Of a DNA stretch of 64,000 nt, positions 2,642 to 61,628 are shown in pieces. Source of the stretch: a virus (taxonomy: Duplodnaviria; Caudoviricetes); the IMG/VR virus record IMGVR_UViG_3300005546_000002, positions 1 through 64,000 of that record; one strand, given 5' to 3'. Position numbers and translations under genes: made by a program. The notes under the pieces were generated by a model. The model saw only the letters and a program-made list of their open reading frames with translations, was not told where the DNA came from and made no database searches. Within the stretch, counting starts at the first letter, position 1; every line of letters begins with the position of its first letter.

Positions 2642-3706
2642 TCATCTTTCAGCCCCTTCCGTCACGTTGACGTGACTTTCGGAGGGGAACTGCCTAACGC
2701 GTAAATCCTTCTCCCATTCGTACCAGTTCCCGCCTTTTTTGTCTCCCAGCTTAATCGGCCATCGAGTACCGTTCTGACACTGGCATAAAGCGCTATTGAT
2801 ATCAACACAAGGGGTTCCGCAGATATCAACGGGCCGCGATCCCATCTGCTTCATGAAAAACGGGACGTTTGCCGCTCTGCATTGATCCCGCACATCACGA
2901 GCCCATTGAACATCAAACGGCCTTGCGCCCGGTCCTGATTCGCCGCCGCATACGATCCAGTCAAGACGGAATCGTTGCTGTCCTTTATTAAGCTCGTCTG
3001 TTTCATCTAATGCGGAGATCGTTTTGAAGGATTCCCCAGCAAGCGGAATCCGAATAGAAGTGAAATCGACGGGACCTAGCGCGGGCTCATAACTCACCCA
3101 ACTAATCGCCGCTGGCGTCTTCAACAGCCACGGGATTCGCTCGTCTGCGGTCTTCTGGTCTTCGCAGGAAACGCCAAGATGGACATGCTTTGGCGCACTA
3201 TAGGGCGGACGATGGCCCATCTCTACTCCGTACCCATGTTTTGCTACAAGCAACCTTGTCGCTAACGAATCTCTTTCTCCGAGAGCATCGCCAAGCCGCC
3301 GCTCACCCATGACGTACTCCGCCATATACCTCTGCATCCGCTCTGGCCTCTTCGTGAGCACCTGAAAGATATGCTGCGGACAGAGCGCCATCACCGCGAA
3401 TACCCTGTCGATGTCTTCGTCGCTTAGTGTTTCGTGAAAGAGATCACTCATCGAGTTGACAAAGATTCGACGCGACTTCTTCCAGTGAAGCGGCTCTTCC
3501 AGCTTGTCTTCAGCCAATCGCACGTCCCCGGTCCACACAGGCCCGTTGCTCGTCAGTCGCGTCAGACCTTCATACGCTTGGCCCTTGCCGCTGAAGCGAT
3601 GCGCCTGTCTCATAGCATAGCAGTTCGTACAGCCAGCCGAAACGAGCGAGCAGCCGCGTGTCGGATTCCACGTCGCGTCAGTCCATTCTATAGAACTCTG
3701 ATTCAC
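2642..3706 (-). CDS. Phage Gp37/Gp68 (DUF5131) family protein
   Basis: IEWTDATWNP, CSLVSAGCTNCYA, FVNSMSDLFHE, LTKRPER, DWIVCGGESG, PFFMKQ signature motifs. Confidence 0.92.
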   Translation of the reverse strand: MNQSSIEWTDATWNPTRGCSLVSAGCTNCYAMRQAHRFSGKGQAYEGLTRLTSNGPVWTGDVRLAEDKLEEPLHWKKSRRIFVNSMSDLFHETLSDEDIDRVFAVMALCPQHIFQVLTKRPERMQRYMAEYVMGERRLGDALGERDSLATRLLVAKHGYGVEMGHRPPYSAPKHVHLGVSCEDQKTADERIPWLLKTPAAISWVSYEPALGPVDFTSIRIPLAGESFKTISALDETDELNKGQQRFRLDWIVCGGESGPGARPFDVQWARDVRDQCRAANVPFFMKQMGSRPVDICGTPCVDINSALCQCQNGTRWPIKLGDKKGGNWYEWEKDLRVRQFPSESHVNVTEGAER

Positions 3707-3997
3707 TTCTCTCCGCCCTTCAGCAAAGCACTCAGTTCGGCTTGATACAAAACACAGAACTCGCCAACAGCCGCGTCCCCGTCAGGATGAATTACAGCAA
3801 CACAATTCATACCGCTCGGAATACACGACGACACGATGTTCATCCCCGTTACCACGGAAAACTCGCCGTTTATATCGCCCTCTATCGGGCAGAACGTAAA
3901 CAGCCTGTCCACGCATCCCATCGACGCGTCAATCACGCAATTAGTCCATTTCTGCTGCATAAAACTTCTCAGTCACGTCAACGTGACGAATCTCTCA

Positions 3998-4105
3998 GAT
4001 TTGCGTTTTAAGCGACTTTTTCGACCCAATCCATATCATGGTACCTTTTTGACCCCAAACGTGCCTTAAAACGCCTTAGAACGCCGGGAAAGGGCATTTT
4101 AGAAG
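3998..4105. repeat. Intergenic element of about 105 bp, copy A
   Basis: TTTGCGTTTTAAGCG ... GTGCCTTAAAACGCCTTAGAACGCC, shared with copies at 15101, 48116 and 58430. Confidence 0.8.
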
Positions 4106-4509
4106 CCTATGATAGGTTGTTTTCGGCTTTAGTCCGGTTTTAGACACCAAGAACCTCTTTCGCTTCGTTTAATCGGCTCGCCCAAGTAGCATGATGAACA
4201 CAAGCCGAGCAATGAACGTTGTGCCGAGAATGATGGCAAAGAACCGGAGGCGGAACCAACGTCGCCCATTCAGCGAGCATGGCGGTCGTGTGTTCAGGAT
4301 ACTCGTACTTATACTTAGACGGGTCCGATTTCATATAATCACGATTCCTGTAGTGCGCGCTAGCTGACTAAGAATCGCCGGAGTGATAGCAATCTCAGAT
4401 GTTTCTGCAAACTGACGTGCTAGCTCATGCGAAACCTCGCAACCGCAAAGCGCGCAGCGATACTTACAAGCGACAAGGTCATCAATCCAATTATGCTCAT
4501 GGTCGGGCA

Positions 4510-5553
4510 TTAACTTACCGCCCCGCTCTTTTGCGTGTCCTTCGACTTCTCGGCCTGCTGGATAGCGACGCTCGCCATAACCGCTTCTCTGATCTCTGCC
4601 TGCAACACGGCATCAGAATCCAGCGTCTCCCGTGCTTTCTCCCGGCCTTGCCCGAGTCGATTGCCTTTGTAGGAAAACCACGCGCCGCTCTTCTCTATGA
4701 TCTTATGCTCAACTGCGAGATCGAGAACCGACATCATACCGGAGATACCTTTGCCATAGATTAGTTCGAATATCGCTTCGCGGAATGGCGGTGCCACTTT
4801 ATTCTTGACGACCTTCAAACGGGTCTGGGCTCCGATAACTTGCTCGCCGTCCTTGACGCTTCCGATGCGCCGGATATCCATCCGAACCGAGGCGTAGAAC
4901 TTGAGCGCTCTCCCGCCCGTAGTCGTCTCGTTCGGTCCCCACTGAGAGCCGCCTATCGTTGATCGAATCTGGTTGATAAAAACAAGGCAAGTATTCGACC
5001 GGGCCACCACTGCTGTTAGCTTCCTGAGTGCCTGAGACATCAACCGCGCCTGCTTACCGGGCAAGCTGTCGCCCATCTCTCCGGCTAGTTCGTCCCGAGG
5101 CACGAGCGCAGCAACGGAGTCCACAATAATCAAGTCGGTCGCTCCGGTGCGGATAAGCGCTTCAGTAATTTCCAACGCCTCTTCACCACATCCCGGCTGC
5201 GCGATAAACAGGTCTTCGACCGATACTCCGAGATTCTTAGCGTATTGCGTATCGAGCGCATGTTCGGCGTCGATGTAAGCACAGGCTCCGGTAAGCGTGC
5301 GCTGCGCGATAGCTACCATGTGAAGAGCCAAGGACGACTTGCCCCCGCCCTCCGGTCCATACAGCTCCGTGATCCTTCCCTTTGGAATACCGCCGACCCC
5401 GAGAGCAAGGTCAATAGCCATACAGCCAGTCGAGATGACTTGGACTTCCAGCGGCTTAGTATTCAAGGTTGTCAGAGTACCCTTCCCGAACCGCTTATCC
5501 AAGCTCGCTATAGCCAAGTCCATTGCCCGCCGCTTGATAGGATCGAAGGTCAT
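4510..5553 (-). CDS. recA: Recombinase RecA
   Basis: Full-length RecA motifs: [74 protein letters not shown]. Confidence 0.97.
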
Positions 5554-6489: not shown

Positions 6490-6759
6490 TCCACGTCTCC
6501 CGTCACGTCAACGTGACTTTTTAGTGCGCCAACACCGATTGAGCAAATCGATAACCGGGAATCGCCGCGACCTCATAACAGACAGGACAGCGCTCAATCC
6601 GCTTATATTCCGTCGTCATCATCTCAGTATACCATGTGGAAAAGCAGGCCGCGCAGCAGACATTTCCCGTCCAGAGGACTCCGTCCGCCGAACAATACTG
6701 CGTTTGCAGTAGAACTGTCTTGTCGATTTGATTCTCCGGTATCATCGCCAACCTGAACC

Positions 6760-6800: not shown

Positions 6801-6849
6801 TTTCGTTACAACGGTTAGAAATCAAGCAAACTTTTCCCGCCGAGCTTTG

Positions 6850-6888
6850 AAAATAACTCTTGACATTCCAGCCCAAAGAACCGATAAT
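6850..6888 (+). promoter_or_regulatory. Sigma70-type promoter, rightward
   Basis: AAAATAACTC-TTGACA (6860-6865), 17 bp, GATAAT (6883-6888); ATG at 6895 suggests a leaderless mRNA. Confidence 0.8.
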
Positions 6889-6894
6889 ACAGCT

Positions 6895-7302
6895 ATGACA
6901 AAGACAGCAAACAAACCGGCGCTGAAGAAAGGCGACGTGGTTTACTGGGTTACCGTAGGCGATAATGAAGCCGGTGTAGCTGAATACTGGGTTCCCCAGG
7001 TCCGTATCGAGTCGTGGGGGAAGAGACAGGGAACGGCGGTATATACGAATGAAGAAAGATACGCCCTACGCCGCTTCTACACCGATAACGCGGTAATGTT
7101 GCGAACGAAAGAGGAAGTAGAAGCGTACTGCGCTGAGCGCGGCATCGCTCGCTCAGAGCAAACCAAGGCTCGCCTACTGGTTATCACGCAGGACTGGATA
7201 GAAGAGTATTCGTCCAAGGCCAAGCCGGAAATCGTCGCTAAAGCTCAACGCGAGCTAGAGGCAATAAAGCGTCCGGCGAGCTTTACTATAAAGTACACCT
7301 AA
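6895..7302 (+). CDS. Hypothetical early protein
   Basis: ORF directly after the promoter; start moved to ATG 6895. Confidence 0.7.
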   Translation: MTKTANKPALKKGDVVYWVTVGDNEAGVAEYWVPQVRIESWGKRQGTAVYTNEERYALRRFYTDNAVMLRTKEEVEAYCAERGIARSEQTKARLLVITQDWIEEYSSKAKPEIVAKAQRELEAIKRPASFTIKYT

Positions 7303-7335
7303 TCAGCCTTGACGACAAAAGGGAGGAACCAGAAG

Positions 7336-8292
7336 ATGAGAACAGACATTCACAGCCCAAAGAACTTTGATCCGGCGAACTACAATTATGTAGGCTCTTT
7401 CGACAACTTCCCGGCTCCCGGTTCTTTCGTGAGCGCCAAAGAACAGACCTCATACGACACCGCCTTTGGAACAGTCTTGGCGTTTACTTACGATCACGCC
7501 GACTACAAAGCCGCTCACGATCTCTTGGAGCGCGAGGGAGCCAAAATCCACTTCGATTCCAACAAGGGTACTTCGCAGTGTGATCATTGCGGCGCTCACA
7601 TTCGCTACGTTTCAATCTACCGTCATATCGACGGCGAAGTCGTAGCAGTAGGCGATACCTGCGCGGCTGATCGTTTTGGATGCGCAGACCGCCGAGCGTT
7701 CGACATTAAACGGCTCAAGGAACACGCCGCTAGCGCTCGCGAGTCTCAACGAGCATTCGGCGCTGCCTCAACCTTCATTCAGCAAGCAGCCCCGGAACTG
7801 GCCGAATGGATGTTAAACCCAATCGCGAGCGAAGTCGGTCCGATTTTTCTCGATATATCCCGGAAGCTGATTCGGTACGGCAAAATATCCGAGAGACAGG
7901 TTGACTTCTGCCGCAGACTTCTTCAGGAATATTACGAACGACAACGGAACGGCGGGAAGAGTGATCGCGAGCTACAGTTTGAGAAAGAGCGGGAAGCCGC
8001 AGAAGACTGTCCGACCGGGCGCATCGTTATCATCGGGACCGTTCTCAGCACCAAAGTACAGGAGAGCGATTTCGGCCCGACGCTGAAGATGGTCGTCAAA
8101 GATGATCGCGGCTTTCGCGTATACGTGACCGTCCCTTCAACCCTGAGCCCCGAGAGAGGCGATAAGGTTCGATTCACAGCGACGGTTGAACCGAGCAACG
8201 ACGATCCTAAGTTTGGGTTTGGCAAACGCCCGAGCAAGGCCACGATACTCAGCGAGGAAGTCGTTAACGCTCCGCAGTCTATAGCTTTCTAA
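7336..8292 (+). CDS. Hypothetical protein with CxxC motif and C-terminal OB-fold-like region
   Basis: SD GGGAGG upstream; CDHC...C; C-terminal GTVLSTK...FG...GDKVRFTATVE pattern. Confidence 0.6.
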   Translation: MRTDIHSPKNFDPANYNYVGSFDNFPAPGSFVSAKEQTSYDTAFGTVLAFTYDHADYKAAHDLLEREGAKIHFDSNKGTSQCDHCGAHIRYVSIYRHIDGEVVAVGDTCAADRFGCADRRAFDIKRLKEHAASARESQRAFGAASTFIQQAAPELAEWMLNPIASEVGPIFLDISRKLIRYGKISERQVDFCRRLLQEYYERQRNGGKSDRELQFEKEREAAEDCPTGRIVIIGTVLSTKVQESDFGPTLKMVVKDDRGFRVYVTVPSTLSPERGDKVRFTATVEPSNDDPKFGFGKRPSKATILSEEVVNAPQSIAF

Positions 8293-8324
8293 AAGTCACG
8301 TCAACGTGATTCGGGAGAACCAAG

Positions 8325-8648
8325 ATGCCACTCAAGAAGATCAAGACAATCACAGGACACGCGGCTTATTTTCGGTTCAACTGCGAACTTAGCGACGAGC
8401 CGGTTGGATACATCCCGCGACAGGCGGACATTCCTTCGCCTTACTCTTACAGCCCGGTTCATCCGGTCTGGTTATGGTCAAAGCCGAATAAGAATCCGTT
8501 TACGTTCGGCGAAGACTTCCGCGTTATCTGCGTTGAGACGCGACATTCCAGACATGAGATATTCGAAGTCCCGGCTGAGATGATCAAGGCGACCGAGGAA
8601 GAAATTATCAGTATCCCGGTTTACACCGAGACTCAGGAGAAGATATGA
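8325..8648 (+). CDS. Hypothetical protein
   Basis: SD GGGAG; stop overlaps next start (ATGA). Confidence 0.6.
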   Translation: MPLKKIKTITGHAAYFRFNCELSDEPVGYIPRQADIPSPYSYSPVHPVWLWSKPNKNPFTFGEDFRVICVETRHSRHEIFEVPAEMIKATEEEIISIPVYTETQEKI

Positions 8649-9313
8649 GCAGGGTAATCAATTTCTCGGATCGCAAGCTCGCGCTCGCAATAGAGCCGGA
8701 GCCCCGCGAGCCCTCGCCTTATACCAGCCGCAAAGCCTCTTGCGGCTCTTTTGTTATCAGCGGGTCTACCGAATTGTATACCCCGCCTGCGTATGTCGAA
8801 CTTGTCAGGGAAACGCTCGGAGGTATCGACCTTGACCCGGCGTCTCACCCGCTCCCCCAGTCTTGGATCAAGGCTGGAACTTTCTGGCAAGAGTCGGACA
8901 GCGGACATATGCGAGCTTGGTTCGGGCGCGTCTTCTGCAATCCGCCCTATGGAAAGAACGAAAGTAACGGGTCTGTTGCGGCTGCTTGGGCGAACAAGAT
9001 GCGCTTCGAATACGGCTCCGGCAATATCGAAAGCGGTATCCTTCTAGTCAACTCCGTTCCCGGCTACAACTGGTACGAAGACCTTTGGGTTAGATACCCG
9101 GTTTGCTGCGTCAAAGATCGAATATGCTTTATCAAACCGGACGGAACCCCGGCGTCCCGCGCAGTTCGCGGACAGACGTTCGTCTACTTCGGGCGAAATC
9201 CCCGCAAGTTCAAAGAGGTTTTCAGTCGCATCGGTCGGGTTATCCCGCCCCTGAGCCACGTTGACGTGACGAATCCTTTCGCTCCGAAGAGAAAAGGCAG
9301 GGGCAGCATATAG
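8645..9313 (+). CDS. Phage Dam-like DNA N6-adenine methyltransferase (paralog 1)
   Basis: YTP, IDLDPAS (SAM binding), FCNPPY (catalytic motif). Confidence 0.88.
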   Translation: MSRVINFSDRKLALAIEPEPREPSPYTSRKASCGSFVISGSTELYTPPAYVELVRETLGGIDLDPASHPLPQSWIKAGTFWQESDSGHMRAWFGRVFCNPPYGKNESNGSVAAAWANKMRFEYGSGNIESGILLVNSVPGYNWYEDLWVRYPVCCVKDRICFIKPDGTPASRAVRGQTFVYFGRNPRKFKEVFSRIGRVIPPLSHVDVTNPFAPKRKGRGSI

Positions 9314-9334
9314 AACTTTCCACCCTCTAGATAG

Positions 9335-9373
9335 AAAATAACTCTTGACATTCCTTTTACCTTCGACGATAAT
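9335..9373 (+). promoter_or_regulatory. Sigma70-type promoter
   Basis: AAAATAACTC-TTGACA (9345-9350), 17 bp, GATAAT (9368-9373). Confidence 0.8.
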
Positions 9374-9382
9374 AGCCTTACC

Positions 9383-9796
9383 ATGAAGCAAACGCCCAAA
9401 AGAGAAAGTCGCAACGTTAAGAACCAAGGAATGAACTGGATTAGGCCGGAGAAGCGCGTTGCCATCTATCTCCGCGACGGCCTAGCCTGTTCTTATTGCG
9501 ATCAGGGCGTGGAAGAGGGAGTCCGATTAACGCTCGATCATCTTACGGCCTACTCTCGTGGCGGGTCAAACGAGGCCACGAATCTCGTAACCTGCTGCTC
9601 GCGCTGCAATAGTTCTCGCGGGAATCGTCCGTGGAGACAGTTTGCAGCCTCAGTAGCGATTTACCTGAACCACGGCATCAAAGCCGAACAGATTATTCAG
9701 CATATCAGCCGAACCCGCAGGCGTGTTCTTGATTTGAACGCCGCCAAAGAGCTAATCGCTCTCCGAGGCGGGTTCAGCGCGGCATTAAACAAATGA
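9383..9796 (+). CDS. HNH endonuclease
   Basis: RDGLACSYC...LTLDHL...GGSN...NLVTCCSRCN. Confidence 0.9.
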   Translation: MKQTPKRESRNVKNQGMNWIRPEKRVAIYLRDGLACSYCDQGVEEGVRLTLDHLTAYSRGGSNEATNLVTCCSRCNSSRGNRPWRQFAASVAIYLNHGIKAEQIIQHISRTRRRVLDLNAAKELIALRGGFSAALNK

Positions 9797-10797
9797 ATCA
9801 AGCAGAAATCACACTCGAACTCAGCAAACTCGCGTCCGAACAGTTCAAGGACGACACTTTGAGCTATTTCGCTGAGAGCAATCAAGGCCGGTTCGGGAGC
9901 TTGAATCAACAACAGGCTCGGAGCCGGAAGTCTCGCAGACAGGAGCGCGAGATAGAATTGCTCGCGATCTTGCGGGAACGCGGGTTATCCTACGACCCGC
10001 CCGAGTTTGAAATTACCTTTGCAGTCCGGGCGACAAAAAGCGCAGTCGAGGTAAGCAGAGGCTGGAAGCAAGGATATACGGCTGTCCCGGTCAGCTCTGT
10101 TGTAGCCGAAGCTGGATTTCGGTTCGCTCTAATAACCGGAGACTGCCCTCACACAGTCAGAGGCTCTTCCTTTCAGGAAGCCTCCGATAGAGCTTTAGCA
10201 GAACACAGGGAGAAATGTTTATGAGCGCAATCTACGAAGACCCGGTTTACGACGAGTCGCTTCAAGTTGTCGAACCGGAACAGGAGAATGACAATGAAGA
10301 AAGAGAATAGCCCGGAACCTCCGCGTGTACCAGAAAGCAACGAGCGACGGTTCCATAAAACGAGGGACAAGCATAGCGGGTGCGTTATCAAGTACGTCAC
10401 AATCGACAACGAAGTATGCTATCGCATCATGGGTACGAGCCAGATTCGCCATAGCAAGCTCGCGAACTTTCTTCGCGCTTGGGAGCCCTCTAACTAATGC
10501 TCGCTCGCTACAAGAACAAAGACTACGTTCTGCTTCAGCGGCGCAAACGCGGCTCCGGCTCTCAGGTCCATCTTGGCTTTCTCGACGGTACTAAGGACTT
10601 CTGGGTGCAAGCCGAAAAGATATCGAAGAGTCAGTCGCGAAGAAGTCACGTTGACGTGACGAAATATACCGTGTTTTGCCGGGCCTGTCCCGAACGAGCA
10701 GAGCGAGTCTGCGAGTCCTGCCAGCGCCCGCTCTGTCAATCCGACTTCGATAATCACCGCTGTCCTCCGGCCTCGTAAAAAAATCTCAGCTAGAATG

Positions 10798-10836
10798 AAA
10801 ATAACTCTTGACATTTCTAGCTCTCGGACTCATAAT
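10798..10836 (+). promoter_or_regulatory. Sigma70-type promoter
   Basis: AAAATAACTC-TTGACA (10808-10813), 17 bp, CATAAT (10831-10836); SD AGGAGG before ATG 10865. Confidence 0.8.
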
Positions 10837-10864
10837 AGAGCCCGACGACGAAAAGGAGGGAACC

Positions 10865-11128
10865 ATGAAGAAATTTACTTGGAAGCCAGGCATCCGACAA
10901 TACGGAAGTGGTGAGATACTTTATGTCGGAAAATGGCCGGTCGGCTCGGTTAGCTATTCAGCTAATGTTCCTCGCGAAGACCCTAAGAAATACGTCGCTT
11001 GCTCCCGACTGCCGGGGCTAAAAAGCGATCTCGGGCATTTTGAAAAATTGCAGGACGCCAAGCTGAAAGTTGAAGCGGCTACAGCTTACTGGTTCACAAA
11101 AGCCGGGCAAGAGGAAGAGGTAAAGTGA
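10865..11128 (+). CDS. Hypothetical early protein
   Basis: Strong SD and promoter; start moved to ATG 10865. Confidence 0.65.
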   Translation: MKKFTWKPGIRQYGSGEILYVGKWPVGSVSYSANVPREDPKKYVACSRLPGLKSDLGHFEKLQDAKLKVEAATAYWFTKAGQEEEVK

Positions 11129-11318
11129 GCAGCAAAGCGCCTATCGTCAAGATTGTTAAGCGGAGCGCCCTCGCCTTCTTCGCCCGGCGAGGCGAACGCT
11201 TTTGGGTTTACCTGTCTTGCGGACACATGGAGAAAATGACTCGCACAGAAGCCCGAACAAAGAACGTAGCTTGCTGGGACTGTTATTATCATAAACCGAC
11301 TGTTTGGGAGGGGAAGAA

Positions 11319-12953
11319 ATGAATCTCAAGATTAAAGTACCGATACTCAAAGAGCTAGTAAAAACGCATAAGCGCCAGTTCATGGAAGACGCGCTGCGCT
11401 ACAAAGACGATTCTCGAACGCTAGAAATTGAAGCCGAGCGCTTTACGGATTCCGAGATAGATGCGCTACTGGACATAGCGCAGGAACACGGAGAAACGGC
11501 GCTAGCGAGACAGATTAAGACCTACATGCTGCTACTAGGCGACCCGAGCGGCACCAAGGTCACAAAGCTGGAAGCGCTCCAAACCGCTCTCAGACAGTTC
11601 ATAGGCGAGACGGAACATAAGTGGCTGTTTCGGGGATCATCCGAAGGGCAGATGCTTCCCTACTACGTTACCGACATCGCCTACGTTCCGGGTCAGCCAC
11701 ACTACCCCGCCCACGTCGTAGTTAATCTCGGCTCAGACTATCGAGGAGAAAAGAAGGAAGAGCGAATTCATTACTGGCGAGACGATCTCAAAGGCGGCAA
11801 GCTCGTATCCGACGTACTTAAACAGAAACAATATTTCCGCGAAACACCGGCGCTTGTTGACGCCTATCTTTGCGAGATGGACAAGTATTCTGAAATCTGC
11901 TCGCGGACCGGAGCTCAATTCCTTGCAACCGGATTCGCAACGATTTCAGATGGACGCTGGTGGAGCACGTCTTTACAGTCGATGGAGCGAGACGGGATTC
12001 CTACTCGCGTAGTTATGGACGATCAATTCGAACGAAAGCAAAGCCGAAGCAGCCGAAGCAGCCGGGAGAGTACGATTATTTCAGACCTCTATTGGACTAA
12101 GCGGCGCAACAAAGACGACGACGAAGATGAACAGGAATCAGGCGGAGTAGCGCTCCCCGTTCATCCCTTCCTTCAAGTCTACGACCTGCGCGAGTATCGC
12201 TACGTGGAAATTCACGTAACAAACCTAGCGTCTTATGTCTACGACGAGACAATAGGCGACAAGCTAGTACTCCCGAAACCGAAGCGAGACTTGATTGATA
12301 TCCTCGTTCGTTCTTCCGGCGAAGTCTTAGAAGACATTGTGCGCGGGAAAACGGGTGGAGTCATTGTGATAGCAACGGGCTCGCCCGGCACGGGCAAGAC
12401 CCTGTCAGCAGAAGTCTTCGCTGAAATTATTCATAAGCCGCTCTATACCGTCCAATGTTCTCAGTTAGGAACCAACCCGGACGCTCTGGAAAAGGAGCTT
12501 ACAGCCGTCCTCGAACGCGCAACTCGTTGGCAAGCCATCTTGCTGTTAGATGAAGCGGACGTGTACGTGAAGGCTCGCGGTAATAACATCAAGCAGAACG
12601 CAATCGTAGGCGTGTTTCTGCGCGTTCTCGAATACTACAGAGGCGTCTTGTTCATGACCAGCAATCGAGAGACAGAGATAGACGATGCGATTATGAGTCG
12701 GGCGACCGCTTGGATTAGATACGAGAAGCCGGAACCGGAAGAGCTGGTAAGAATATGGACGGTCCTCGCGGAGCAGTTTAATATAGTCCTTGCTCCTAAC
12801 CAAGTCGAAGAGCTTCTTACGATGTTCCCGAACATCTCCGGCAGGAATGTGAAGAACCTATTGAAGCTCGCCGGATTGTTAGCCCTCAACCAAGAACGGC
12901 TGGTTACGCCCGAACTAATTCAATACGTCAGCCAGTTCCAAGACCTAAGATAA
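11319..12953 (+). CDS. AAA+ ATPase
   Basis: Walker A GSPGTGKT, Walker B LLLDEAD, sensor/Arg-finger region MTSNR...DDAIMSR. Confidence 0.9.
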   Translation: MNLKIKVPILKELVKTHKRQFMEDALRYKDDSRTLEIEAERFTDSEIDALLDIAQEHGETALARQIKTYMLLLGDPSGTKVTKLEALQTALRQFIGETEHKWLFRGSSEGQMLPYYVTDIAYVPGQPHYPAHVVVNLGSDYRGEKKEERIHYWRDDLKGGKLVSDVLKQKQYFRETPALVDAYLCEMDKYSEICSRTGAQFLATGFATISDGRWWSTSLQSMERDGIPTRVVMDDQFERKQSRSSRSSRESTIISDLYWTKRRNKDDDEDEQESGGVALPVHPFLQVYDLREYRYVEIHVTNLASYVYDETIGDKLVLPKPKRDLIDILVRSSGEVLEDIVRGKTGGVIVIATGSPGTGKTLSAEVFAEIIHKPLYTVQCSQLGTNPDALEKELTAVLERATRWQAILLLDEADVYVKARGNNIKQNAIVGVFLRVLEYYRGVLFMTSNRETEIDDAIMSRATAWIRYEKPEPEELVRIWTVLAEQFNIVLAPNQVEELLTMFPNISGRNVKNLLKLAGLLALNQERLVTPELIQYVSQFQDLR

Positions 12954-12982
12954 GTCACGTTGACATTGACGGAGGAACAAAG

Positions 12983-44036: not shown

Positions 44037-44046
44037 AAAAGTCACG

Positions 44047-48056: not shown

Positions 48057-48115
48057 TCCAATCCGTAAGTTTTTTTTCAGACAGGGGGGCCAACCACGAG
48101 AACCGCTGTTACCGC

Positions 48116-49688: not shown

Positions 49689-49910
49689 ATCGCTCCTTCT
49701 CTTTCAAACTCCACAAGCTCAACTTCCCGTCCGTCCATTCGAGCTTCTTCAGCCGTTCCAGCTTTGTCTGCCCGTTGTAGGTAGTAACCGTAACGCTCTG
49801 ACCGGGCCGGAGGTTTTGCAGGTCCGTCCAGCATCCCCAAGACCCGTCGCTGAGCCGTTTGTATGTACAACTCGCTTCTGCATTCATGCGCATCCCTGCA
49901 TGTCGGTTAC

Positions 49911-50819
49911 TCAAATCTCGGCCTCCTGAGTCACGTTGACGTGACTTTCTAGCGAGTCGATTAGCGCCCGGTTAGCAGCCATCCGTTCTCCGTTCTCTGT
50001 TCGGCATCTTCCTCCGAGTCCGTATAGCCTCATGTTCAACCTCGCCATCTGTACCGCCGTATGATTGATATCGACCCCGTAGAATTCAACCCAGTGGATA
50101 TCTATCAGCCAACGAGGTATCTGACTCGCAGCCGCTAGAAGTAACACGCCGGAGCCGCAACAAGGATCGCAGATTCGGAAAGGTTCGATCTTGTCGCGCA
50201 TCAACGGCCAGATGAAGCGAACGAATTGCGAGAGCGGAGCTTCTTCAAGGTCCGGTACCCCGGCTATCATCCCGAGACTCAGCACCAACGCTTGAAGAAC
50301 CGGATCAGCTTCTATGATAGGCTTCGAACGCCTTGAGAACTCCTGCGCGATATCTCCGAGCGACATCTGAGCCATCATCAAAGCGATAGGCTGCGGGGTA
50401 TAAAACTGGTCCTTATTCCAACGAGAGCCTTCCAGTAGGCTCATATAGATCGCCCCGAGAATATCAGGATAGCTTTCATCGACGGAACAAAGCAGGAGCG
50501 CAAAGGCTTCAGCGAACGACCTATAGCAATGAGAGCTTATCTTGTCCAGTTTCGCCTCGCGCCAGCGCCTCATCGAGTCCTCATCAGAGACGAACTCTTG
50601 ACGTTTGACGAAGCCCGGAAGGTCGTCCAAACAGAGATTACAGACATCAAGCCAGAGCCGAAATACGTCAAGAGTAGAGCGGCTATTATCAGCGCGTTCG
50701 AGCAGCTTTAAGATCGCCCGCGAATAGTCGGTAGGCGGTCCGGCTTTGACCGGCGCTTCAGCCGCCTCAATCTCCGCTATCAGCGCTTTGTTTCTCTTGA
50801 TTGCTTCGCTGTTATCCAT
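49911..50819 (-). CDS. Type I HsdM-like methyltransferase fold lacking the NPPY/F motif
   Basis: DILG..YM, QFYTP, DPCCGSG, YGVDIN...MARLN; ends before any catalytic motif IV. Confidence 0.7.
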   Translation of the reverse strand: MDNSEAIKRNKALIAEIEAAEAPVKAGPPTDYSRAILKLLERADNSRSTLDVFRLWLDVCNLCLDDLPGFVKRQEFVSDEDSMRRWREAKLDKISSHCYRSFAEAFALLLCSVDESYPDILGAIYMSLLEGSRWNKDQFYTPQPIALMMAQMSLGDIAQEFSRRSKPIIEADPVLQALVLSLGMIAGVPDLEEAPLSQFVRFIWPLMRDKIEPFRICDPCCGSGVLLLAAASQIPRWLIDIHWVEFYGVDINHTAVQMARLNMRLYGLGGRCRTENGERMAANRALIDSLESHVNVTQEAEI

Positions 50820-51232
50820 TACCATAGCTCCCGCAATATACGATCCGCCCAGATAACGATAGCCCGCGCTTCTGCGCATTGAGCCTTTGGTGTATCAGCC
50901 CGACATGCTAAGTCCATATTCGCGCTTCTGATCCTCTGAGCCTGATCTTGAATAGCAGAGGTCCGCGAAATATAGTTAGCCGACTTCCGCGACGGAGAGA
51001 GCGGATGACATTCACTGTGGTAGTTCCCCTGCCTGTGAGTAAAATCCATCGAAGCAATCCAGTCCCCAGTAGGCAGTTGAAGAACGTAGATAGCCGCCTT
51101 CGCTTTTCGACTTTCATAGACAAGCCGCTCGACTGCGGGGTGATCATGAGAATAAACGCCATGCTCATTCGGCTCCGGCTCAATCTGAGACAACAGAGCC
51201 TTGTTCCTTGCTATCGCCTCTTTGTTATTCAT
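50819..51232 (-). CDS. Hypothetical protein
   Basis: Coupled to both neighbours; shares an N-terminal leader with the MTase-like proteins. Confidence 0.65.
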   Translation of the reverse strand: MNNKEAIARNKALLSQIEPEPNEHGVYSHDHPAVERLVYESRKAKAAIYVLQLPTGDWIASMDFTHRQGNYHSECHPLSPSRKSANYISRTSAIQDQAQRIRSANMDLACRADTPKAQCAEARAIVIWADRILRELW

Positions 51233-51755: not shown

Positions 51756-51885
51756 ATCTTACCTGATTGAATTCTGAATGTCAAGAGTTATTTTCAGGTT
51801 GTAATAAAGCCCGTCACGTTGACGTGACTTTCTTTTCCCTTAGATAGAAAATAACTCTTGACATTCTATTTCTATCGGCTATAAT
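51756..51885. promoter_or_regulatory. Divergent sigma70-type promoter pair with a palindrome between them
   Basis: Leftward TTGACA (51779-51784)-17-TAAGAT; rightward TTGACA (51858-51863)-16-TATAAT; repeat at 51813-51828. Confidence 0.8.
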
Positions 51886-51913: not shown

Positions 51914-52165
51914 ATGGATCAAAAAAGAGTCAGCCCAAAAGACAGACGATTTGCCGTTATCGCGCTTGGGGTGCAAATAGGCAAGTCGGGGCGTAAGGAT
52001 ACTTCTCTCTGTCTCGAAGAGATTGCAAGCGAAGCGATCGCTACAAAATCAACTTTACTTATTCACAGTGTCCTTACTGCGGTCGGCGAACAGGCATGGA
52101 AAAAATTCGTTAGTGACGTAGAAGAAGTCGCTCAGCGACACCGGAGGCTCGTAGATGCCAAATAA
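51914..52165 (+). CDS. Hypothetical protein
   Basis: SD GGGAG after the promoter. Confidence 0.65.
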   Translation: MDQKRVSPKDRRFAVIALGVQIGKSGRKDTSLCLEEIASEAIATKSTLLIHSVLTAVGEQAWKKFVSDVEEVAQRHRRLVDAK

Positions 52166-53642
52166 TCAAAAACTACCAACCTTTGAAGTAGACAAGCAAG
52201 GGCTCGCCAAGATACTTGAGCGCCGGGGCAAGGCGTTCGTTATCACCGAGCTATGGCAGAACGCGGTTGACGAAGATAACGTTACGCGGATTGTTATAGA
52301 CCTGAAGCGCATCGGTAAATACCATGCACAGCTTTCGGTTGCCGATGATGCCCCATTAGGATTCACGGACCTCAAACATGCTTATACGCTGTTCGCCGAG
52401 TCCTACAAGAAAGGCAACGCGCTCAAGCGCGGTCGATTCGATCTTGGAGAGAAGCTAGTTATCGCGCTCTGCAACTACGCCCATATAATCACAACGAAAG
52501 GAACGGTCGTGTTCGAAAACGGCGGACGCAGACACTCCGCTGTGACGACAGACGGCGGAACCGAATTCGTGGGCAGGCTCCCGATGACCGAAGAGGAATA
52601 CGAGGCTTGCTGTCGGGAGATCAGACGACTGATCGTTCCGATGAACGTCACTACGATCTTCAACGGCGAAGAGCTTACACGGCGCGTCTGCCTCGCGTCC
52701 TTTCCAGCCCGGTTGCTGACCGAGATCGCAGACGAAAGCGGGGTCCTGCGACGAACGCCCAGAGACACGACGGTCGAACTCTATCTACCGCGTCCGAGCG
52801 AGAAGGCGACTATCTACGAGATGGGCGTTCCGATTGTCGAAAGCGGAGATCAGTACCACGTAAACATCCTACAGCGAGTCCCGCTGAATATGGATCGAGA
52901 CAACGTTACGCCGGGCTATCTACGGGACATCCGGGCGCTCGCGCTCAACAACGCCTCAGACTTCATGACAGCCGAAGAGATCAAAGCGCCTTGGGTTGAT
53001 GACGCGCTGGAAGACGACCTGACCGAAACGGAGGCGCTCAAAACCGTGGTCACGAAGCGCTACGGAGAAGACGCCGTAGTCTACGACCTGTCCGACCCCG
53101 AAGCGAACAAGATCGCCGTATCACAAGGCCGACAGGTAATCCACGGCGGATCGTTCAGCCGAACCGCGTGGAGTAAAATCAGAGAAACAGAAGTCGTTAG
53201 ACCAGCCGGGAAGGTAACCCCTAGCGCAAAGGCATGGTCAGGGGAAGGACAGGCAGACGCGGAGCCGTTCACAGACTGGATTCCAGAAGAGAAATGGACG
53301 ACCGGGATGCAGGAGATAGCAAGACTCGGGCGCTATCTCGGTCAAGCTCTGTTCAAGATAGACATCGCGGTTCAGTTCTGTTCGAGCGTCGATATGCTCG
53401 CTTCAGCGGCCTACGGAAACCGCTGTTTGTCGTTCAACAAGCTCCGTCTTGGAGGCGACTGGTTTGAGCAAGACCCGTTAAGCGAACCCGTTCTTGCGCT
53501 GCTGATCCACGAGCTTGCGCACGAACTAAGCCATGACCACCTAAGCAAAGAGTATCATCACGCACTTTGCAGTCTCGGGGCTCGTATTGCGGGCCTCGCC
53601 CTTGATAGACGACTGTTACAAGCCATGAAAGGACACTTATGA
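52155..53642 (+). CDS. GHKL (HATPase_c-like) ATPase with C-terminal HExxH motif
   Basis: ELWQNAVDE (N box), VADD..GF, RGRFDLGEK, GT; LLIHELAH at the C-terminus. Confidence 0.8.
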   Translation: MPNNQKLPTFEVDKQGLAKILERRGKAFVITELWQNAVDEDNVTRIVIDLKRIGKYHAQLSVADDAPLGFTDLKHAYTLFAESYKKGNALKRGRFDLGEKLVIALCNYAHIITTKGTVVFENGGRRHSAVTTDGGTEFVGRLPMTEEEYEACCREIRRLIVPMNVTTIFNGEELTRRVCLASFPARLLTEIADESGVLRRTPRDTTVELYLPRPSEKATIYEMGVPIVESGDQYHVNILQRVPLNMDRDNVTPGYLRDIRALALNNASDFMTAEEIKAPWVDDALEDDLTETEALKTVVTKRYGEDAVVYDLSDPEANKIAVSQGRQVIHGGSFSRTAWSKIRETEVVRPAGKVTPSAKAWSGEGQADAEPFTDWIPEEKWTTGMQEIARLGRYLGQALFKIDIAVQFCSSVDMLASAAYGNRCLSFNKLRLGGDWFEQDPLSEPVLALLIHELAHELSHDHLSKEYHHALCSLGARIAGLALDRRLLQAMKGHL

Positions 53643-53651
53643 GACTCATAA

Positions 53652-53687
53652 AAGAACAGGACGGCTATTGCGGGCCGTCCTGTTCTT
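53652..53687. terminator. Bidirectional terminator between convergent units
   Basis: Perfect 14-bp IR AAGAACAGGACGGC/GCCGTCCTGTTCTT. Confidence 0.85.
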
Positions 53688-53710
53688 CAAAAGTCGCGTT
53701 GACGTGATTC

Positions 53711-54292
53711 TCAGCAAAGCGCCCCGTCGCCTATCTCCCTGTCCTTGATCCCTGCAACGTAGGTCGCCCCGTAGTTTCCGATCTCCCACCGGGCAAGATC
53801 GCCTACTCTGCGAAGCCAGTTTAGTTCGGGAGTAGCGTTCCCTCGACTTACAGCGGCTACGCAGAGCGTTATCGCACCCTCACGACCGGGCTCCATCATC
53901 CCACAAGCAAACTTCTGATAGAACGGGACGTAGAACGGAGCCGGAACCAAAGTAATTCTTATCTGGTCGGGACGTATGCGCAACAGCCCCGGGTACCTCG
54001 TAGTGCAGGGGGGCCAACGAGTATCGTGAATCACATGATACGCCTCATCAAGCCACGTCGCCAGCTTATCAGGGAACTCGTTGTAATACCGAATGAACTC
54101 GCTGCGAACATACTCAGGCACGCCCTCTTCTGTCATCCACCTAAGCGCCCGGTTCAGCCGCTTCTCAATCCGCTTCTGCTTGCGCGGACGTTCGTCAAAT
54201 CCATGCGCCTGATAATGAATCCCGAGCGGCGTCTGTTTCCAGAGCGCCGCTTCATCGGGATCGCCAAACAATGCGAAGATCGGATTGTCCAT
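53711..54292 (-). CDS. Hypothetical protein
   Basis: Last gene of the late operon. Confidence 0.6.
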   Translation of the reverse strand: MDNPIFALFGDPDEAALWKQTPLGIHYQAHGFDERPRKQKRIEKRLNRALRWMTEEGVPEYVRSEFIRYYNEFPDKLATWLDEAYHVIHDTRWPPCTTRYPGLLRIRPDQIRITLVPAPFYVPFYQKFACGMMEPGREGAITLCVAAVSRGNATPELNWLRRVGDLARWEIGNYGATYVAGIKDREIGDGALC

Positions 54293-56547: not shown

Positions 56548-56586
56548 TTATTTATTTATTCTCCACAAAAGTCACGTTGACGCGAC

Positions 56587-58539: not shown

Positions 58540-58555
58540 ATCACGTCAACGTGAC

Positions 58556-58948
58556 TTATACTCGCTGGCCGGAGGCGAAGAAGTCTCGCAGACCATGCGG
58601 CTCCGCTACTTCGACCGCGTATCTCCAACAAGCGTCTACGATATTCTGTCCGTCTCCGCTGTGAGCCGCTGCTGCTAGGTATTCTTGATAGAAACTCCCC
58701 GGCACACTAATAATCTTTGGAGCCAAGCCGGGAACCCGAATAGCCGTCTTGAGCAGCAATTGCTCGTCTTCCGGCAAAGCGGTCTCTTCTTCCGTTAGCT
58801 GCTGGCGGCGCAATCTCTCGTTCAAGAACGGCCAGAACTCCAACCGGGCTCGCTCGTGAAACACCTGCAACTCGACTACCGCGAGCATCCAGTAAACGCC
58901 TTCGATAACGATCCCGCTATATAACGTATGATCTCGTTCGACCGCCAT
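58556..58948 (-). CDS. Hypothetical protein after the tail genes (tail-assembly-like)
   Basis: SD AAGGGG; position after the tail genes. Confidence 0.5.
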   Translation of the reverse strand: MAVERDHTLYSGIVIEGVYWMLAVVELQVFHERARLEFWPFLNERLRRQQLTEEETALPEDEQLLLKTAIRVPGLAPKIISVPGSFYQEYLAAAAHSGDGQNIVDACWRYAVEVAEPHGLRDFFASGQRV

Positions 58949-58979
58949 GAATTCCCCTTCTAGTCGTCGCTTACCTGCA

Positions 58980-59747
58980 TTATAGCACCGCGTCGTACAA
59001 CGTTAGATTAGCGGAGGCGTCCGAGTAACAGACCGTGATATTCTGAATGTAGACGGTCCCGCTTGATTGCTGTTTGATCTGCAAGTACAGAATATCCCCC
59101 CAATCGCAGGGCGAAGTCATATCGATAGACTTAGTAGCTGAAAACGTAGGATAGGTTGCTGTGTTTTCCGTTGCTGAGCTCCCAACTACTACCACAGTCC
59201 CGTTCCTTAGCTTTCGAACAACCTGCACTTCTGCGATACCTGCGCTCCGCGATAACTCGCACTTGATCCGATACTTCCCCGGCCTCGTAACCTGAAACGG
59301 ATTCGAGACATCCACGAAGCTCGTACTCGCCGTAGAGAACTCCGCTGGGCGACTAAGTATCTGGGTGTTGCCGGGCTCCACGGGCCGGAAGCCCATGAAG
59401 TAATCTGAGTCCGTGACATGCGAAGATAGGTCTACAAACTTCCCGGCTATCCATCGATTCCCGCCCCTATCAACTACAAGCGATACCGGATCGGAAGCTG
59501 CGGGAGCAGCATAGCGATGCCCATATTGCTGTATCAACCTGTGCGTCTTCGTCCCTACAGCCGCAGCGCTCTCCCACGGCTGCTGAACAGTTGGATTACC
59601 AGACCCGGACCACGCAGCCGGAATCTTCGCTTTCCAGACCCCAAAGATATCCAGCCCGCTCTTTTTCTGAGCGATGTCCAGTATGCGACCGAAGAGGCCG
59701 AACACCGAACTCTTGACCGGCACATTTGGTAAGTTAGGTTGTGACAT
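58980..59747 (-). CDS. Putative tail-tip/receptor-binding protein
   Basis: S/T/V-rich beta C-terminal domain; coupled to the tail genes. Confidence 0.5.
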   Translation of the reverse strand: MSQPNLPNVPVKSSVFGLFGRILDIAQKKSGLDIFGVWKAKIPAAWSGSGNPTVQQPWESAAAVGTKTHRLIQQYGHRYAAPAASDPVSLVVDRGGNRWIAGKFVDLSSHVTDSDYFMGFRPVEPGNTQILSRPAEFSTASTSFVDVSNPFQVTRPGKYRIKCELSRSAGIAEVQVVRKLRNGTVVVVGSSATENTATYPTFSATKSIDMTSPCDWGDILYLQIKQQSSGTVYIQNITVCYSDASANLTLYDAVL

Positions 59748-61611
59748 CTACCACGCTCAAAAACTGATGCTCCATCAACTCGGGGCCGAACCTTAATGTC
59801 CATTCATCTTCAACAAAGTCCGCATCAATCCCAAGTCCGGGGATTACCAATCGCAGCTTATCCCTGCTTTCATGTATCGGCCTCGGCAACGTCTTGACCC
59901 TCAGCCGCTGCGCCCATCGCGCCGTCTCGTCAGAAACTATTTGCTGTCCGATAGCACCCGCAGTCGTATTATCCGGGGCGTCAGTTTGAACCAATACCGG
60001 CTTCGTCGGGAGAAAGACCGTACTGGTCGCGCTCCGTGCCTTGTCGTTCGTGACTATCGCTTGCACATCAGCAACATCCGGGTTGCCGTTAAACACGATT
60101 GCTTGATTAACTACCTTTCGCTGCTCTATCGCTAGCGTCGTATCATCAGCCGCGCTAATCACGCTCGTCTCATCGGCTACCAACGTCTCTACTACAGCGC
60201 GGTTGATATCCAATACCTGTTGCTCGATAACCGCCGAACCAAAGCCCGTGAATCGTATCGGACGATAGTTAATCGCATTAAGCAGATAATTTATCGCATC
60301 GAGCGCCGGAGAGCCTACCTCGAAATCAATATCCGCTGAGGCCGTCAATGTCGTAGTCTGAACAGACCAAGCTACCGTATCGAACCCGGCAAGCCTCGCT
60401 ATCGCCAATACTCCTTTTGAAGTCGAGGTATCAGATGTTAAGAAGTTCCCGCCCGACTGCAAGGTAATTCTCGATCCTAGCTTATAATCAGCGAGCGCTC
60501 GCGCTTGATCTTGCATGGTCAACACGTCGGTTATCCCAGTCGTCGTATACTGGCGATCTAGCGTAGGTAACAACGCGGTTATTTGCGGCCATTCCGCATA
60601 CCCGCTACCGTCCGTTCCCGCTGTCGGCATCCTTACCCCATACCAGATTCTTATCCGGTCCCCTCTGTCCCTGTCGGTTAGAATCTCGTTCCGCTGATTC
60701 GCTCCCGCCTGAAATTCATCACGAATCGCTTTCGGACTCGGTACTCGGCTTAACATCCCGATCTCGTCTATCGAGCCCGGAAAATAATCACCACCCTGAT
60801 CCCTGCCAATCTCTATTGCGAGATTTGAGAAGTTCAACGTCTTCGATACAACGCTCTTATACACCCGTTTGGCATCGACGTACATCAACACCGCGCTCCC
60901 GTCGTAAATTCCTATTACATGATGAGCCTTCCCATCATTCACCGCAACGTCGCTTGTGTATATAATAGGAGTCGAAGGCGCGTCGGTAAAATAAAGCACC
61001 ATCTCTAGCTTACCAGTAGTACTTACTCGAAACTGAAACACGCTCTGGCTCGTAAAGTTCTCTCGGCTGATAATAACCTTACTCGCCGCCGCCGCCGAAG
61101 TCAGCGAAACCCAAGCGGACAAAAACAAGGTAGATACATCCATCCAAGCCGCATCCGCGATGCTTAGATACCCGCTCGATCCGTCAAGTATGATCGAGTT
61201 ATTCGCCGTATCCCCGGGCACCAGCGAACCCGCTCCGTAGGTAATTCCACTGTGGGTCGTAAAGGTTCGACCGTTGCCGGTCAAATCAACAAAGTTTCCA
61301 CTCGTCTCGCCTAACCGCAGATGGAAGAGTCGATTCTGCGCCAAGATAGTGTCAGCGAAGCTCCGTAGTGGCGCTGGATGCTGGGTATCACGAAGCGTTT
61401 CCAGGAATCGCACTTGAGCCCCGCCCTGAATTGGCTGATCTTCTCTGTGAGATACGCTTCCGTCAGACATCAGCCCGATCAAATCGTATAGCTTTACGAG
61501 ATCGCTATCCAGCAACTCGGCTCGAACACGGATCAGCAACGGCATATCTAGCCCCTGTAGAGCCCGATCTACCGCCGCCACCGTGTACCCGTTTACCGAT
61601 TTACTTAACAT
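59734..61611 (-). CDS. Minor tail protein with inserted LamG/concanavalin-A-like domain
   Basis: RLGETSG...DG...SAWV...DGKAHHVIGIYDGS..MYVD...FPGSIDEI; baseplate-hub-like C-terminus. Confidence 0.75.
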   Translation of the reverse strand: MLSKSVNGYTVAAVDRALQGLDMPLLIRVRAELLDSDLVKLYDLIGLMSDGSVSHREDQPIQGGAQVRFLETLRDTQHPAPLRSFADTILAQNRLFHLRLGETSGNFVDLTGNGRTFTTHSGITYGAGSLVPGDTANNSIILDGSSGYLSIADAAWMDVSTLFLSAWVSLTSAAAASKVIISRENFTSQSVFQFRVSTTGKLEMVLYFTDAPSTPIIYTSDVAVNDGKAHHVIGIYDGSAVLMYVDAKRVYKSVVSKTLNFSNLAIEIGRDQGGDYFPGSIDEIGMLSRVPSPKAIRDEFQAGANQRNEILTDRDRGDRIRIWYGVRMPTAGTDGSGYAEWPQITALLPTLDRQYTTTGITDVLTMQDQARALADYKLGSRITLQSGGNFLTSDTSTSKGVLAIARLAGFDTVAWSVQTTTLTASADIDFEVGSPALDAINYLLNAINYRPIRFTGFGSAVIEQQVLDINRAVVETLVADETSVISAADDTTLAIEQRKVVNQAIVFNGNPDVADVQAIVTNDKARSATSTVFLPTKPVLVQTDAPDNTTAGAIGQQIVSDETARWAQRLRVKTLPRPIHESRDKLRLVIPGLGIDADFVEDEWTLRFGPELMEHQFLSVVDVTT

Positions 61612-61628
61612 AGTCACGTCAACGTGAC

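Follow-up and report, generated by a model that had tools for sequence, protein, structure and literature searches.

The start-associated sequence (SAS) of Cluster K mycobacteriophages is an asymmetric repeat that contains a Shine–Dalgarno (SD) sequence and precedes many start codons by a few bases, and parS sites follow a consensus of the TGTTNCACGTGAAACA type and occur in few, clustered copies. Dispersed palindromes are known in phages from the Cluster O mycobacteriophages, which carry more than 30 copies of a 17-bp dyad repeat, TGTTCGGNNNCCGAACA, of unknown function and with no assigned reader, for which the authors predicted a dimeric binder (PMC4351075). On plasmid RK2, the reach of KorB from an OB site extends to promoters as far as 1.5 kb away (PMC11790492). 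Here we analyse a 16-bp palindrome, GTCACGT-YR-ACGTGAC, that recurs throughout the genome of a siphovirus from soil, IMG/VR virus record IMGVR_UViG_3300005546_000002 (95,866 bp). Coordinates refer to the window, the stretch of 64,000 nucleotides (bases 1–64000 of the record) that was analysed in detail, unless the genome is named. The genome holds 46 copies of the palindrome, spaced more evenly than random placement would give. We tentatively read them as a lattice of sites on double-stranded DNA at which a dimeric, sequence-specific protein made by the phage docks, a reading to which we give a little less than an even chance.

An evenly spaced, near-invariant palindrome

In the window, the palindrome occurs in 13 exact copies, against none in 100 dinucleotide shuffles, and in 29 copies at up to three mismatches (the first at 2661–2676, the last at 61613–61628), against 0.81 in the shuffles (largest, 3). 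An earlier note, made from the window sequence, had counted 30; the thirtieth is most likely the half-decayed copy at 12954–12969, GTCACGTTGACATTGA, which has four mismatches. With this copy added, the gaps that the note gave are reproduced, at 0.56–3.1 kb apart from one of 5.9 kb that runs from 44041 to 49930. Its proposal that the array is genome-wide holds for the full record, and the evidence supports an array under selection.

The family is all-or-none, composed of near-perfect copies with no degenerate tail. Genome-wide, 43 words lie at four to five mismatches from the consensus, compared with 58–81 in shuffles, and isolated half-sites are almost absent (1 and 3). All 27 of the 27 substitutions that depart from the consensus are transitions. 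Read in the mRNA sense, the centre is CA in 25 copies, TG in 19 and TA in 2, and its orientation is random relative to transcription. The earlier note had described copies in both orientations, which is correct for this central dinucleotide only: TG and CA are one duplex read from opposite strands, so that, as double-stranded DNA, all copies are one sequence. Near-perfect copies without a degenerate tail, and with almost no half-sites, fit a dimer site under strong selection, and the random orientation of the centre within a single duplex sequence favours a site in double-stranded DNA, as for the Cluster O repeats (PMC4351075).

The suspicion of the same note that the spacing is more even than random was borne out. 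Gaps average 2,083 bp, with a coefficient of variation (CV) of 0.56 for the 46 copies of the genome and 0.52 in the window. Uniform placement gave a CV of 0.98, and none of 20,000 simulations was as low as the value observed. When 46 positions were picked at random from the 130 gene junctions, the CV was 0.94 (P about 1e-4), and the layout of genes therefore does not account for the evenness, which persists for the 42 copies with no more than one mismatch (CV 0.58). The two widest gaps correspond to the tape-measure gene, which has a copy at both ends, and to a run of small genes at 44–50 kb. From such evenness it follows that the stretch of DNA served by each site is limited.

We hypothesize that a dimeric phage protein docks on the copies, which would place all of the genome within about 1–1.5 kb of a bound protein. 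Such a lattice may serve whole-genome regulation or organization, much as KorB does on OB operators or Noc on its sites, and not partition of the plasmid type. Individual copies bear on the choice between DNA and RNA. The exact copy at 51813–51828 lies midway between divergent promoters, 28 and 29 nt from their −35 elements, and is transcribed from neither, which favours a site in DNA over one in RNA. Copies within genes would be harmful if RNA were cut there, and so also favour a DNA site; these are the copy at 33334–33349, described below, and that at 40460–40475, which has one mismatch, has no A-rich flank and lies deep within a 632-aa open reading frame (ORF; 40150–42048).

Conservation in relatives and gain by insertion

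The palindrome is not a host repeat, an alternative that the earlier note had raised. Among the matches listed for cellular genomes (185,579 species), only single, scattered copies occur, in unrelated taxa, and 596 Gb of sequence would yield about as many isolated matches to a 16-mer by chance. IMG/VR has just one other record with several copies (L009), which is the same phage, at 99.9% identity. At positions 3869–3947 that record has about 79 extra bases relative to the present genome at about 19115–19119, near an overlap of ParB-like and dioxygenase genes; this stretch could be an insertion–deletion variant or an assembly artefact. Cultured phages gave no nucleotide match to this phage.

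Short soil-metagenome contigs with 50–60% protein identity to this phage (L045, L073, L107 and L119) carry the identical word, at 16 of 16 positions. In both L107 and the present genome a copy precedes the portal ATG by 19 nt, and the spacer between them is wholly different. Other copy positions differ between the genomes, and position is only partly conserved. That the word is kept in relatives at this level of protein identity, together with the even spacing, favours a docking lattice. Capsid-gene relatives at 48% identity and 61–65% G+C, represented by two partial genomes (G001, contigs L272 and L273; G002, contigs L269–L271), have no copy of this word. They carry instead the palindrome CCATAACGTTATGG, five times in 26.6 kb and eight times in 60.5 kb, just ahead of the ribosome-binding site (RBS) or ATG; after the capsid gene it tips a longer stem, the arms of which differ between the two genomes. 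A different palindrome in distant relatives is expected of a protein and its site evolving together.

Copies are gained by insertion. At 33334–33349 (one mismatch), the palindrome and its flank form an 18-nt, six-codon in-frame insertion (FESRVN region) in the gene 32901–33617, and the homologue in L073 has a six-residue gap exactly there. We propose that new copies arise as insertions of about 18–20 bp, which would survive mainly between a stop codon and the next RBS; survival in these short gaps could make the copies look ‘start-associated’.

A selfish or neutral mini-palindrome, comparable to repetitive extragenic palindromes (REPs) or the miniature transposable elements with inverted repeats known as MITEs, would also spread by insertion and survive where it is least harmful. 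Besides the in-frame insertion, this would suit the nine copies from which upstream genes take their stop codons or C-terminal tails and the partial conservation of position, and an all-or-none family could reflect recent spread. We nevertheless regard this explanation as improbable: the spacing is much more even than a random choice of junctions would give (P about 1e-4), and the word is identical in relatives with proteins that are 40–50% diverged, including at an orthologous site with a diverged spacer. Protein families were assigned by scanning about 70 proteins with Pfam or PHROGs, a subset of the ORFs, and many small ORFs had no match; in this incomplete set no RAYT or IS200-type gene was seen. 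The 5′ tags GTAG or CGTC by which REPs are defined, in one account at least (PMC3733652), are absent from the copies.

A candidate reader protein

The best candidate for a reader of the palindrome is a 525-aa protein encoded on the minus strand at 36028–37605. Its residues 60–177 are predicted to adopt a helix-turn-helix (HTH) fold of the ParB/KorB/Noc type, and it has four helical repeats and a Lys-rich tail. In a model of residues 1–200 (predicted local distance difference test (pLDDT) of 86), the part before the HTH consists only of a beta-hairpin and a long helix. Alignment of the model with VIA-align gave Z scores of 8.3 to Caulobacter ParB on parS (6s6h), 7.6 to Spo0J, 6.5 to SopB on DNA, 6.4 to KorB, and 5.3 to both VirB and P1 ParB; ParB-family DNA-binding domains make up seven of the twelve top rows. 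Foldseek and Atlas leads agree with a ParB-type DNA-binding domain, and three of ten sequence homologues have sub-threshold matches to HTH_ParB. The gene has the highest coding score and codon signal in the genome, and its product looks highly expressed. It appears to be a better candidate than the ParB-like protein at 19137–19859, which is discussed with the operon that encodes it.

The earlier note had compared the array to parS or matS sites. A docking lattice resembling parS or KorB operators is reasonable, given that residues 60–177 of this protein model as a ParB/KorB/Noc-type HTH. The closer parallel with partition is not supported: the word is not parS, Pfam finds no ParB and no ParA ATPase was seen among the proteins scanned. 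Nor did Pfam reproduce the label ‘LmbU-like’ that the gene at 36028 had been given. The protein has no match in cultured phages and no homologue encoded in G001 or G002, both partial. Searches of viral contigs with this protein and with that of 19137–19859 yielded nothing new, and sequence searches of solved structures with both candidates and a profile gave nothing useful.

Two smaller proteins, both encoded on the minus strand, are alternative readers. One is an 87-aa HTH protein (20028–20291) with two GRP (AT-hook-like) motifs in an Arg-rich tail, identified by eye and with a weak PHROG match; the other is an 89-aa winged-helix-turn-helix (wHTH) protein (35685–35954), FaeA/MarR-like according to family scans. 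To the dispersed palindromes already described in phages, this genome adds a ParB/KorB-type candidate reader that is suited to a direct binding test.

Gene boundaries and a possible role in RNA

The phage has the genes of a siphovirus, with terminase, portal, major capsid, tape-measure (1,721 aa) and tail genes all on the minus strand. Nearly all other genes are also on this strand, the exceptions being two plus-strand blocks at 6847–12953 and 51914–53642. Gene calls were made with our own heuristic, and single start sites may be off. Copies occur at gene junctions, beside promoters and inside ORFs, all as the earlier note had reported; a strand-specific A-rich 5′ flank, a tight link to stops and starts, and starts that lack an SD sequence behind the hairpin go beyond it.

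Several of these features, together with properties of the candidate reader, weigh against a docking lattice. The 5′ flank is strand-specific, RAAA, with A in the mRNA sense at −1, −2 and −3 in 41, 33 and 30 of the 46 copies, respectively, and a symmetric dimer does not need an oriented A flank. Called genes start 0–26 nt downstream of 22 of the 46 copies, compared with 3.5 expected. The first candidate start codon is only 0–6 nt downstream in 13 of the 46, and about 10 of these starts have no SD; such crowding of starts behind the copies, many of them SD-less, suggests that the copies take part in expression of the cistron that follows. With regard to the protein at 36028–37605, the fold match is moderate, and a Z score of 8 is within the chance range for helical models. 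Pfam ParB_N and HTH_ParB have no match anywhere in the genome, including this protein. The model of residues 1–200 contains no CTPase (ParB N-terminal) domain, and KorB-like sliding therefore cannot be assumed. The A flank, the linkage to stops and starts, and the SD-less starts behind a hairpin keep a role at the level of RNA alive.

The RAAA flank is co-oriented with transcription, including at all three copies in the plus-strand gene block, such as that at 8295, where an AAAA flank follows the plus sense. On the 3′ side, again in the mRNA sense, position +1 is T (28 of 46) or G (14 of 46), and +2 and +3 are at background. A longer symmetric palindrome of the form AAA...TTT was ruled out on this basis and, by eye, also at sites without a start codon downstream.

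At most junctions the stop of the upstream gene lies just before the copy or within it, and in nine copies a stop triplet of the palindrome itself (the central TGA or a terminal TGA or TAA) is the stop of the upstream gene. In the following, copies are exact unless mismatches are given. The terminal TGA of the copy at 15632–15647 ends the P-loop kinase gene 15633–16346, and stops are likewise supplied to 23967–25034 by 23966–23981 (two mismatches; in the relative L119, too, a copy follows the homologous gene), to 26118–27647 by 26117–26132 (one mismatch) and to the wHTH gene 35685–35954 by 35684–35699 (one mismatch). At 37630–37645 (one mismatch), the central TGA stops 37636–38061, and the ATG of the candidate reader is 24 nt downstream. 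A TAA lies 6 nt upstream of 6502–6517, with GGGAGA and ATG 6489 following at 12 nt downstream; at 8295–8310 (one mismatch), in the plus-strand gene block, the TAA of 7309–8292 is 5 nt upstream, and an SD and ATG 8325 are 14 nt downstream; and 56571–56586 (one mismatch) has a TAA 3 nt upstream and ATG 56547 23 nt downstream. The copy at 58540–58555 (one mismatch) abuts the stop of 58556–58948, and the half-decayed copy at 12954–12969 directly follows the stop of 11304–12953. The copy at 61613–61628 abuts the TAA of 61629–62306, and ATG 61611, which begins the gene for a 625-aa tail protein, follows 1 nt downstream without an SD. Two copies lie in the last codons of genes: 2661–2676 in the DUF5131 gene 2642–3706, 15 nt upstream of ATG 2645, and 49930–49945 in the N6-methyltransferase gene 49911–50879.

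A first candidate start codon lies 0–26 nt downstream in 29 of the 46 copies, or about 60%, and the interval between a copy and the start ranges from 0 to more than 50 nt. The SD-less starts 0–6 nt behind copies include those of the 625-aa and a 739-aa tail protein and of an amino acid:DNA transferase (ADDT); the tape-measure ATG, 11 nt behind its copy, also has no SD. The ADDT start is 6 nt behind 18270–18285 (one mismatch), which separates it from the stop of a Tet/JBP-type dioxygenase gene. ATG 20291 of the 87-aa HTH protein is 3 nt behind 20295–20310, and ATG 42048 and ATG 44036 are each 4 nt behind their copies (42053–42068 and 44041–44056, both with one mismatch), in all three cases without an SD. 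Longer distances are found at 3972–3987 (11 nt to ATG 3960, which opens an 85-aa ORF), 15075–15090 (two mismatches; 26 nt to ATG 15048) and 28582–28597 (42 nt to ATG 28539), and the copy at 10645–10660 is at no clear gene junction. A third repeat, CGCTTAAAACGCAAATCT, has four copies, at about 3990–4010, 15095–15115, 39380–39400 and 48110–48130; two of these are directly 5′ of the palindromes at 3972 and 15075, and at 3972 the 5′ flank is this repeat and not AAA.

The copy at 30434–30449 (one mismatch) lies in a 5′ untranslated region with the order promoter-type repeat (about 30500), GGGAGA, palindrome, TTT and ATG 30430. Across 30430–30500 the hairpin separates the SD from the AUG. This recalls T4 genes 25 and 38, which have split ribosome-binding sites.

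We therefore weighed a role of the palindrome as an RNA hairpin that marks cistron boundaries in polycistronic mRNA, with a stem of 6–9 bp, a UYRA tetraloop and an A-rich single-stranded 5′ flank. The hairpin might shield message segments from exonucleases, might be recognized by a sequence-specific factor that binds or cuts it, with Cas6/Csy4-like processing leaving the downstream messages near-leaderless, or might bring the upstream stop or SD beside the downstream AUG, as in T4 genes 25 and 38. The co-oriented flank argues for such a role, as do the order of stop, element and start, with nine copies supplying the upstream stop, the close and largely SD-less starts, among them those of tail, tape-measure and modification genes, and the layout at 30434. 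The hairpin is predicted to fold at −7 to −11 kcal/mol, the substitutions, all transitions, keep a G–U pair on one strand, and three leaderless promoters (see below) suggest that the host translates leaderless messages. In G001 and G002, CCATAACGTTATGG is also found just before the RBS or ATG and caps a longer stem with differing arms after the capsid gene.

Other observations speak against the hairpin. The copy at 51813 is not transcribed from its flanking promoters, and the copies inside ORFs (33334 and 40460) would be cut or would stall. The orientation of the loop is random, and there are no compensatory double changes among the copies, which keep strict sequence identity even across relatives; the sense strand shows no significant preference for changes that keep a G–U pair (17 versus 10, P 0.25). 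No endoribonuclease was recognized, and a hairpin alone does not predict spacing that is more even than the junctions allow. On balance we consider a role in RNA somewhat unlikely, although it need not exclude a docking lattice on DNA. The sharp positional rules (stop, element and start in order, SD-less starts and an oriented flank) let an experiment separate the two roles.

An array that is genome-wide and mostly intergenic, with a flank co-oriented with transcription, also recalls the stoperators of Cluster A mycobacteriophages (PMC4351075), genome-wide sites where a temperate phage's immunity repressor binds and obstructs RNA polymerase during elongation. The earlier note had suggested silencing of this kind, which now seems very improbable. 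The core of the palindrome is symmetric, whereas stoperators are asymmetric, and scanning of roughly 70 proteins revealed no integrase, partition pair or CI-like immunity repressor. The ends of the record repeat over 70 bp and are classed by IMG/VR as direct terminal repeats, with no sign of a prophage.

Promoters and terminators

A second repeat family comprises about 13 near-identical σ70-type promoters (AAAATAAYTC, TTGACA, 17 bp, GATAAT). In the window these are at 6860, 9345, 10808 and 51858 on the plus strand and at 6789, 21745, 30500, 34567, 38335, 42701, 48040 and 51780 on the minus strand; a further minus-strand promoter is at 90371 of the genome. In the promoters at 6860, 21745 and 42701 the ATG is exactly 6 nt after the −10 element, which implies leaderless messages and hence a host that translates them. 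Six or seven of the approximately 13 promoters have a palindrome 10–74 nt upstream of the −35 element, and the remaining copies of the 46 are far from promoters. The exact copies at 21761–21776 and 34583–34598 (the latter with a TTAA centre) are each 15 nt upstream of a −35 element, in the first case that of a leaderless promoter, and the exact copy at 38346–38361 is 10 nt upstream. The copy at 9255–9270 (one mismatch) lies in the C-terminal tail of the Dam-like gene 8645–9313 and is 74 nt upstream of the −35 element of the promoter at 9345.

That the palindromes are themselves ordinary promoters or intrinsic terminators is extremely improbable. In the sense direction, TTTT comes after a few copies (53693, 56571 and 44041), and the antisense strand reads as a hairpin followed by UUUY at every copy, but most lack a sense-direction T run. 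The reading as promoters was ruled out by the variable distance to start codons and by the separate promoter family of the phage. A canonical long-stem bidirectional terminator at 53640–53692 separates convergent genes and adjoins the copy at 53693–53708 (two mismatches), which stands after the stop of 53711–54292 and before the terminator. As canonical long-stem terminators exist, the phage does not rely on the palindrome for termination.

A neighbouring thymine hypermodification operon

A minus-strand operon at 15633–19859 encodes a ParB-like protein that consists of a nucleotide-binding domain (NBD) and a C-terminal domain (CTD), a Tet/JBP-type dioxygenase, the amino acid:DNA transferase (PF18724), a flavin adenine dinucleotide (FAD) oxidoreductase, a GNAT protein and a P-loop kinase. 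Judged by its genes, the operon matches post-replicative thymine hypermodification operons of the class with a ParB-dependent thymine dioxygenase (PMC13229309). The gene for the ParB-like protein (19137–19859, minus strand; PHROG ‘ParB-like partition protein’, E 1e-12) overlaps that of the dioxygenase (18289–19167, minus strand; PF12851, E 4e-24), and its top Foldseek matches are PadC, ParB, Noc and KorB (probability 0.9–1.0). The ParB activators of phage thymine dioxygenases have no DNA-binding domain and need no special sites to act on DNA of E. coli, lambda and phiX174, and the activated dioxygenase has a preference only at the trinucleotide level, NTR (PMC13229309). By analogy, the protein of 19137–19859 is probably an activator of the adjacent thymine dioxygenase. 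Because it has no DNA-binding domain and shares the architecture of these activators, it is an unlikely reader of the palindrome, and its inclusion, as ‘ParB-N’, among the possible binders of the earlier note is not supported.

The copies might instead address the hypermodification machinery to phage DNA, as self-marking nucleation sites that are read by a ParB-type protein. The operon is real, its ParB-like NBD and CTD protein is coupled to the dioxygenase gene, three copies lie in or around it and a separate ParB-type HTH protein is predicted, such that three ParB modules would be split over two proteins. Site-selective, ‘epigenetic-like’ thymine oxidation has also been raised as a possibility (PMC13229309). 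However, the ParB proteins of that study need no special sites, and three copies in 4.7 kb is the density of the genome as a whole; we find the proposal decidedly improbable. In the form of a split ParB, to which we give an equally slight chance, the protein of 36028–37605 would dock on the palindromes and recruit or load the protein of 19137–19859 with the thymine dioxygenase, and hypermodification would be nucleated about every 2 kb, on phage DNA only. The lattice would then be a self-marking address system and not a regulator.

The genome also encodes a bacterial-type RecA (4510–5553; PF00154, E 1e-113) and four DNA methyltransferase-like genes (8645–9313, 13464–14138, 38422–39126 and 49911–50879), of which two are Dam-like, one is N6/N4 and one is N6_Mtase.

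Comparison with known systems

The 5mYOX-associated ParB proteins (PMC13229309) resemble the product of 19137–19859, which has an NBD and a CTD, no DNA-binding domain and a gene that overlaps the Tet/JBP gene in a hypermodification operon. This likeness concerns the neighbouring protein, not the palindromes, and no cognate DNA site is reported for that class (PMC13229309). With parS, the present word shares only TCACGT, with the dyad axis elsewhere, and its 46 copies are dispersed. A single ParB with NBD, HTH and CTD, as in ParABS systems, is absent; the NBD and CTD protein and the HTH-fold protein are encoded by separate genes.

Like the SAS of Cluster K, the palindrome is a repeated word a few bases upstream of many starts. 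It differs in having no SD and no fixed distance to the start, with about 60% of copies within 26 nt of a candidate start. The stoperators of Cluster A are similar in that dozens of sites occupy short intergenic gaps and have an asymmetric feature that is co-oriented with transcription (PMC4351075). They are, however, asymmetric 13-bp sites for the immunity repressor of temperate phages, whereas here the core is palindromic and only a flank of 3–4 nt is oriented.

KorB and its OB operators offer the nearest working model of a dispersed palindrome with a ParB-type HTH as its reader. There, too, one palindrome is found at dispersed sites, both promoter-proximal and promoter-distal; the reach of 1.5 kb comes near the half-spacing of the present array, and the fold predicted for the candidate reader matches the DNA-binding domains of KorB, ParB and Noc. 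In contrast to KorB, the candidate has no CTPase clamp, the replicon is an apparently lytic phage and no KorA-like partner is known.

Among published cases, that of the Cluster O phages, exemplified by Corndog, comes closest. Both arrays comprise more than 30 near-invariant copies with 7-bp inverted arms across a siphovirus genome, with copies between genes as well as within them and a centre that is random in orientation relative to transcription, and both phages carry proteins with ParB-like domains. The words are unrelated, the spacer is 2 nt here and 3 nt in Cluster O, and the strand-specific A flank is a feature of the present phage. The spacing of the 37 copies that we measured in Corndog is random (CV 0.94), whereas that of the present phage is even (CV 0.56), and the Corndog repeats are not closely linked to start codons (PMC4351075), in contrast to the tight link to stops and starts seen here. 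Even spacing and a link to cistron boundaries are therefore new to the present array. If the copies do form a docking lattice, it may be a means by which phages control or mark the chromosome as a whole.

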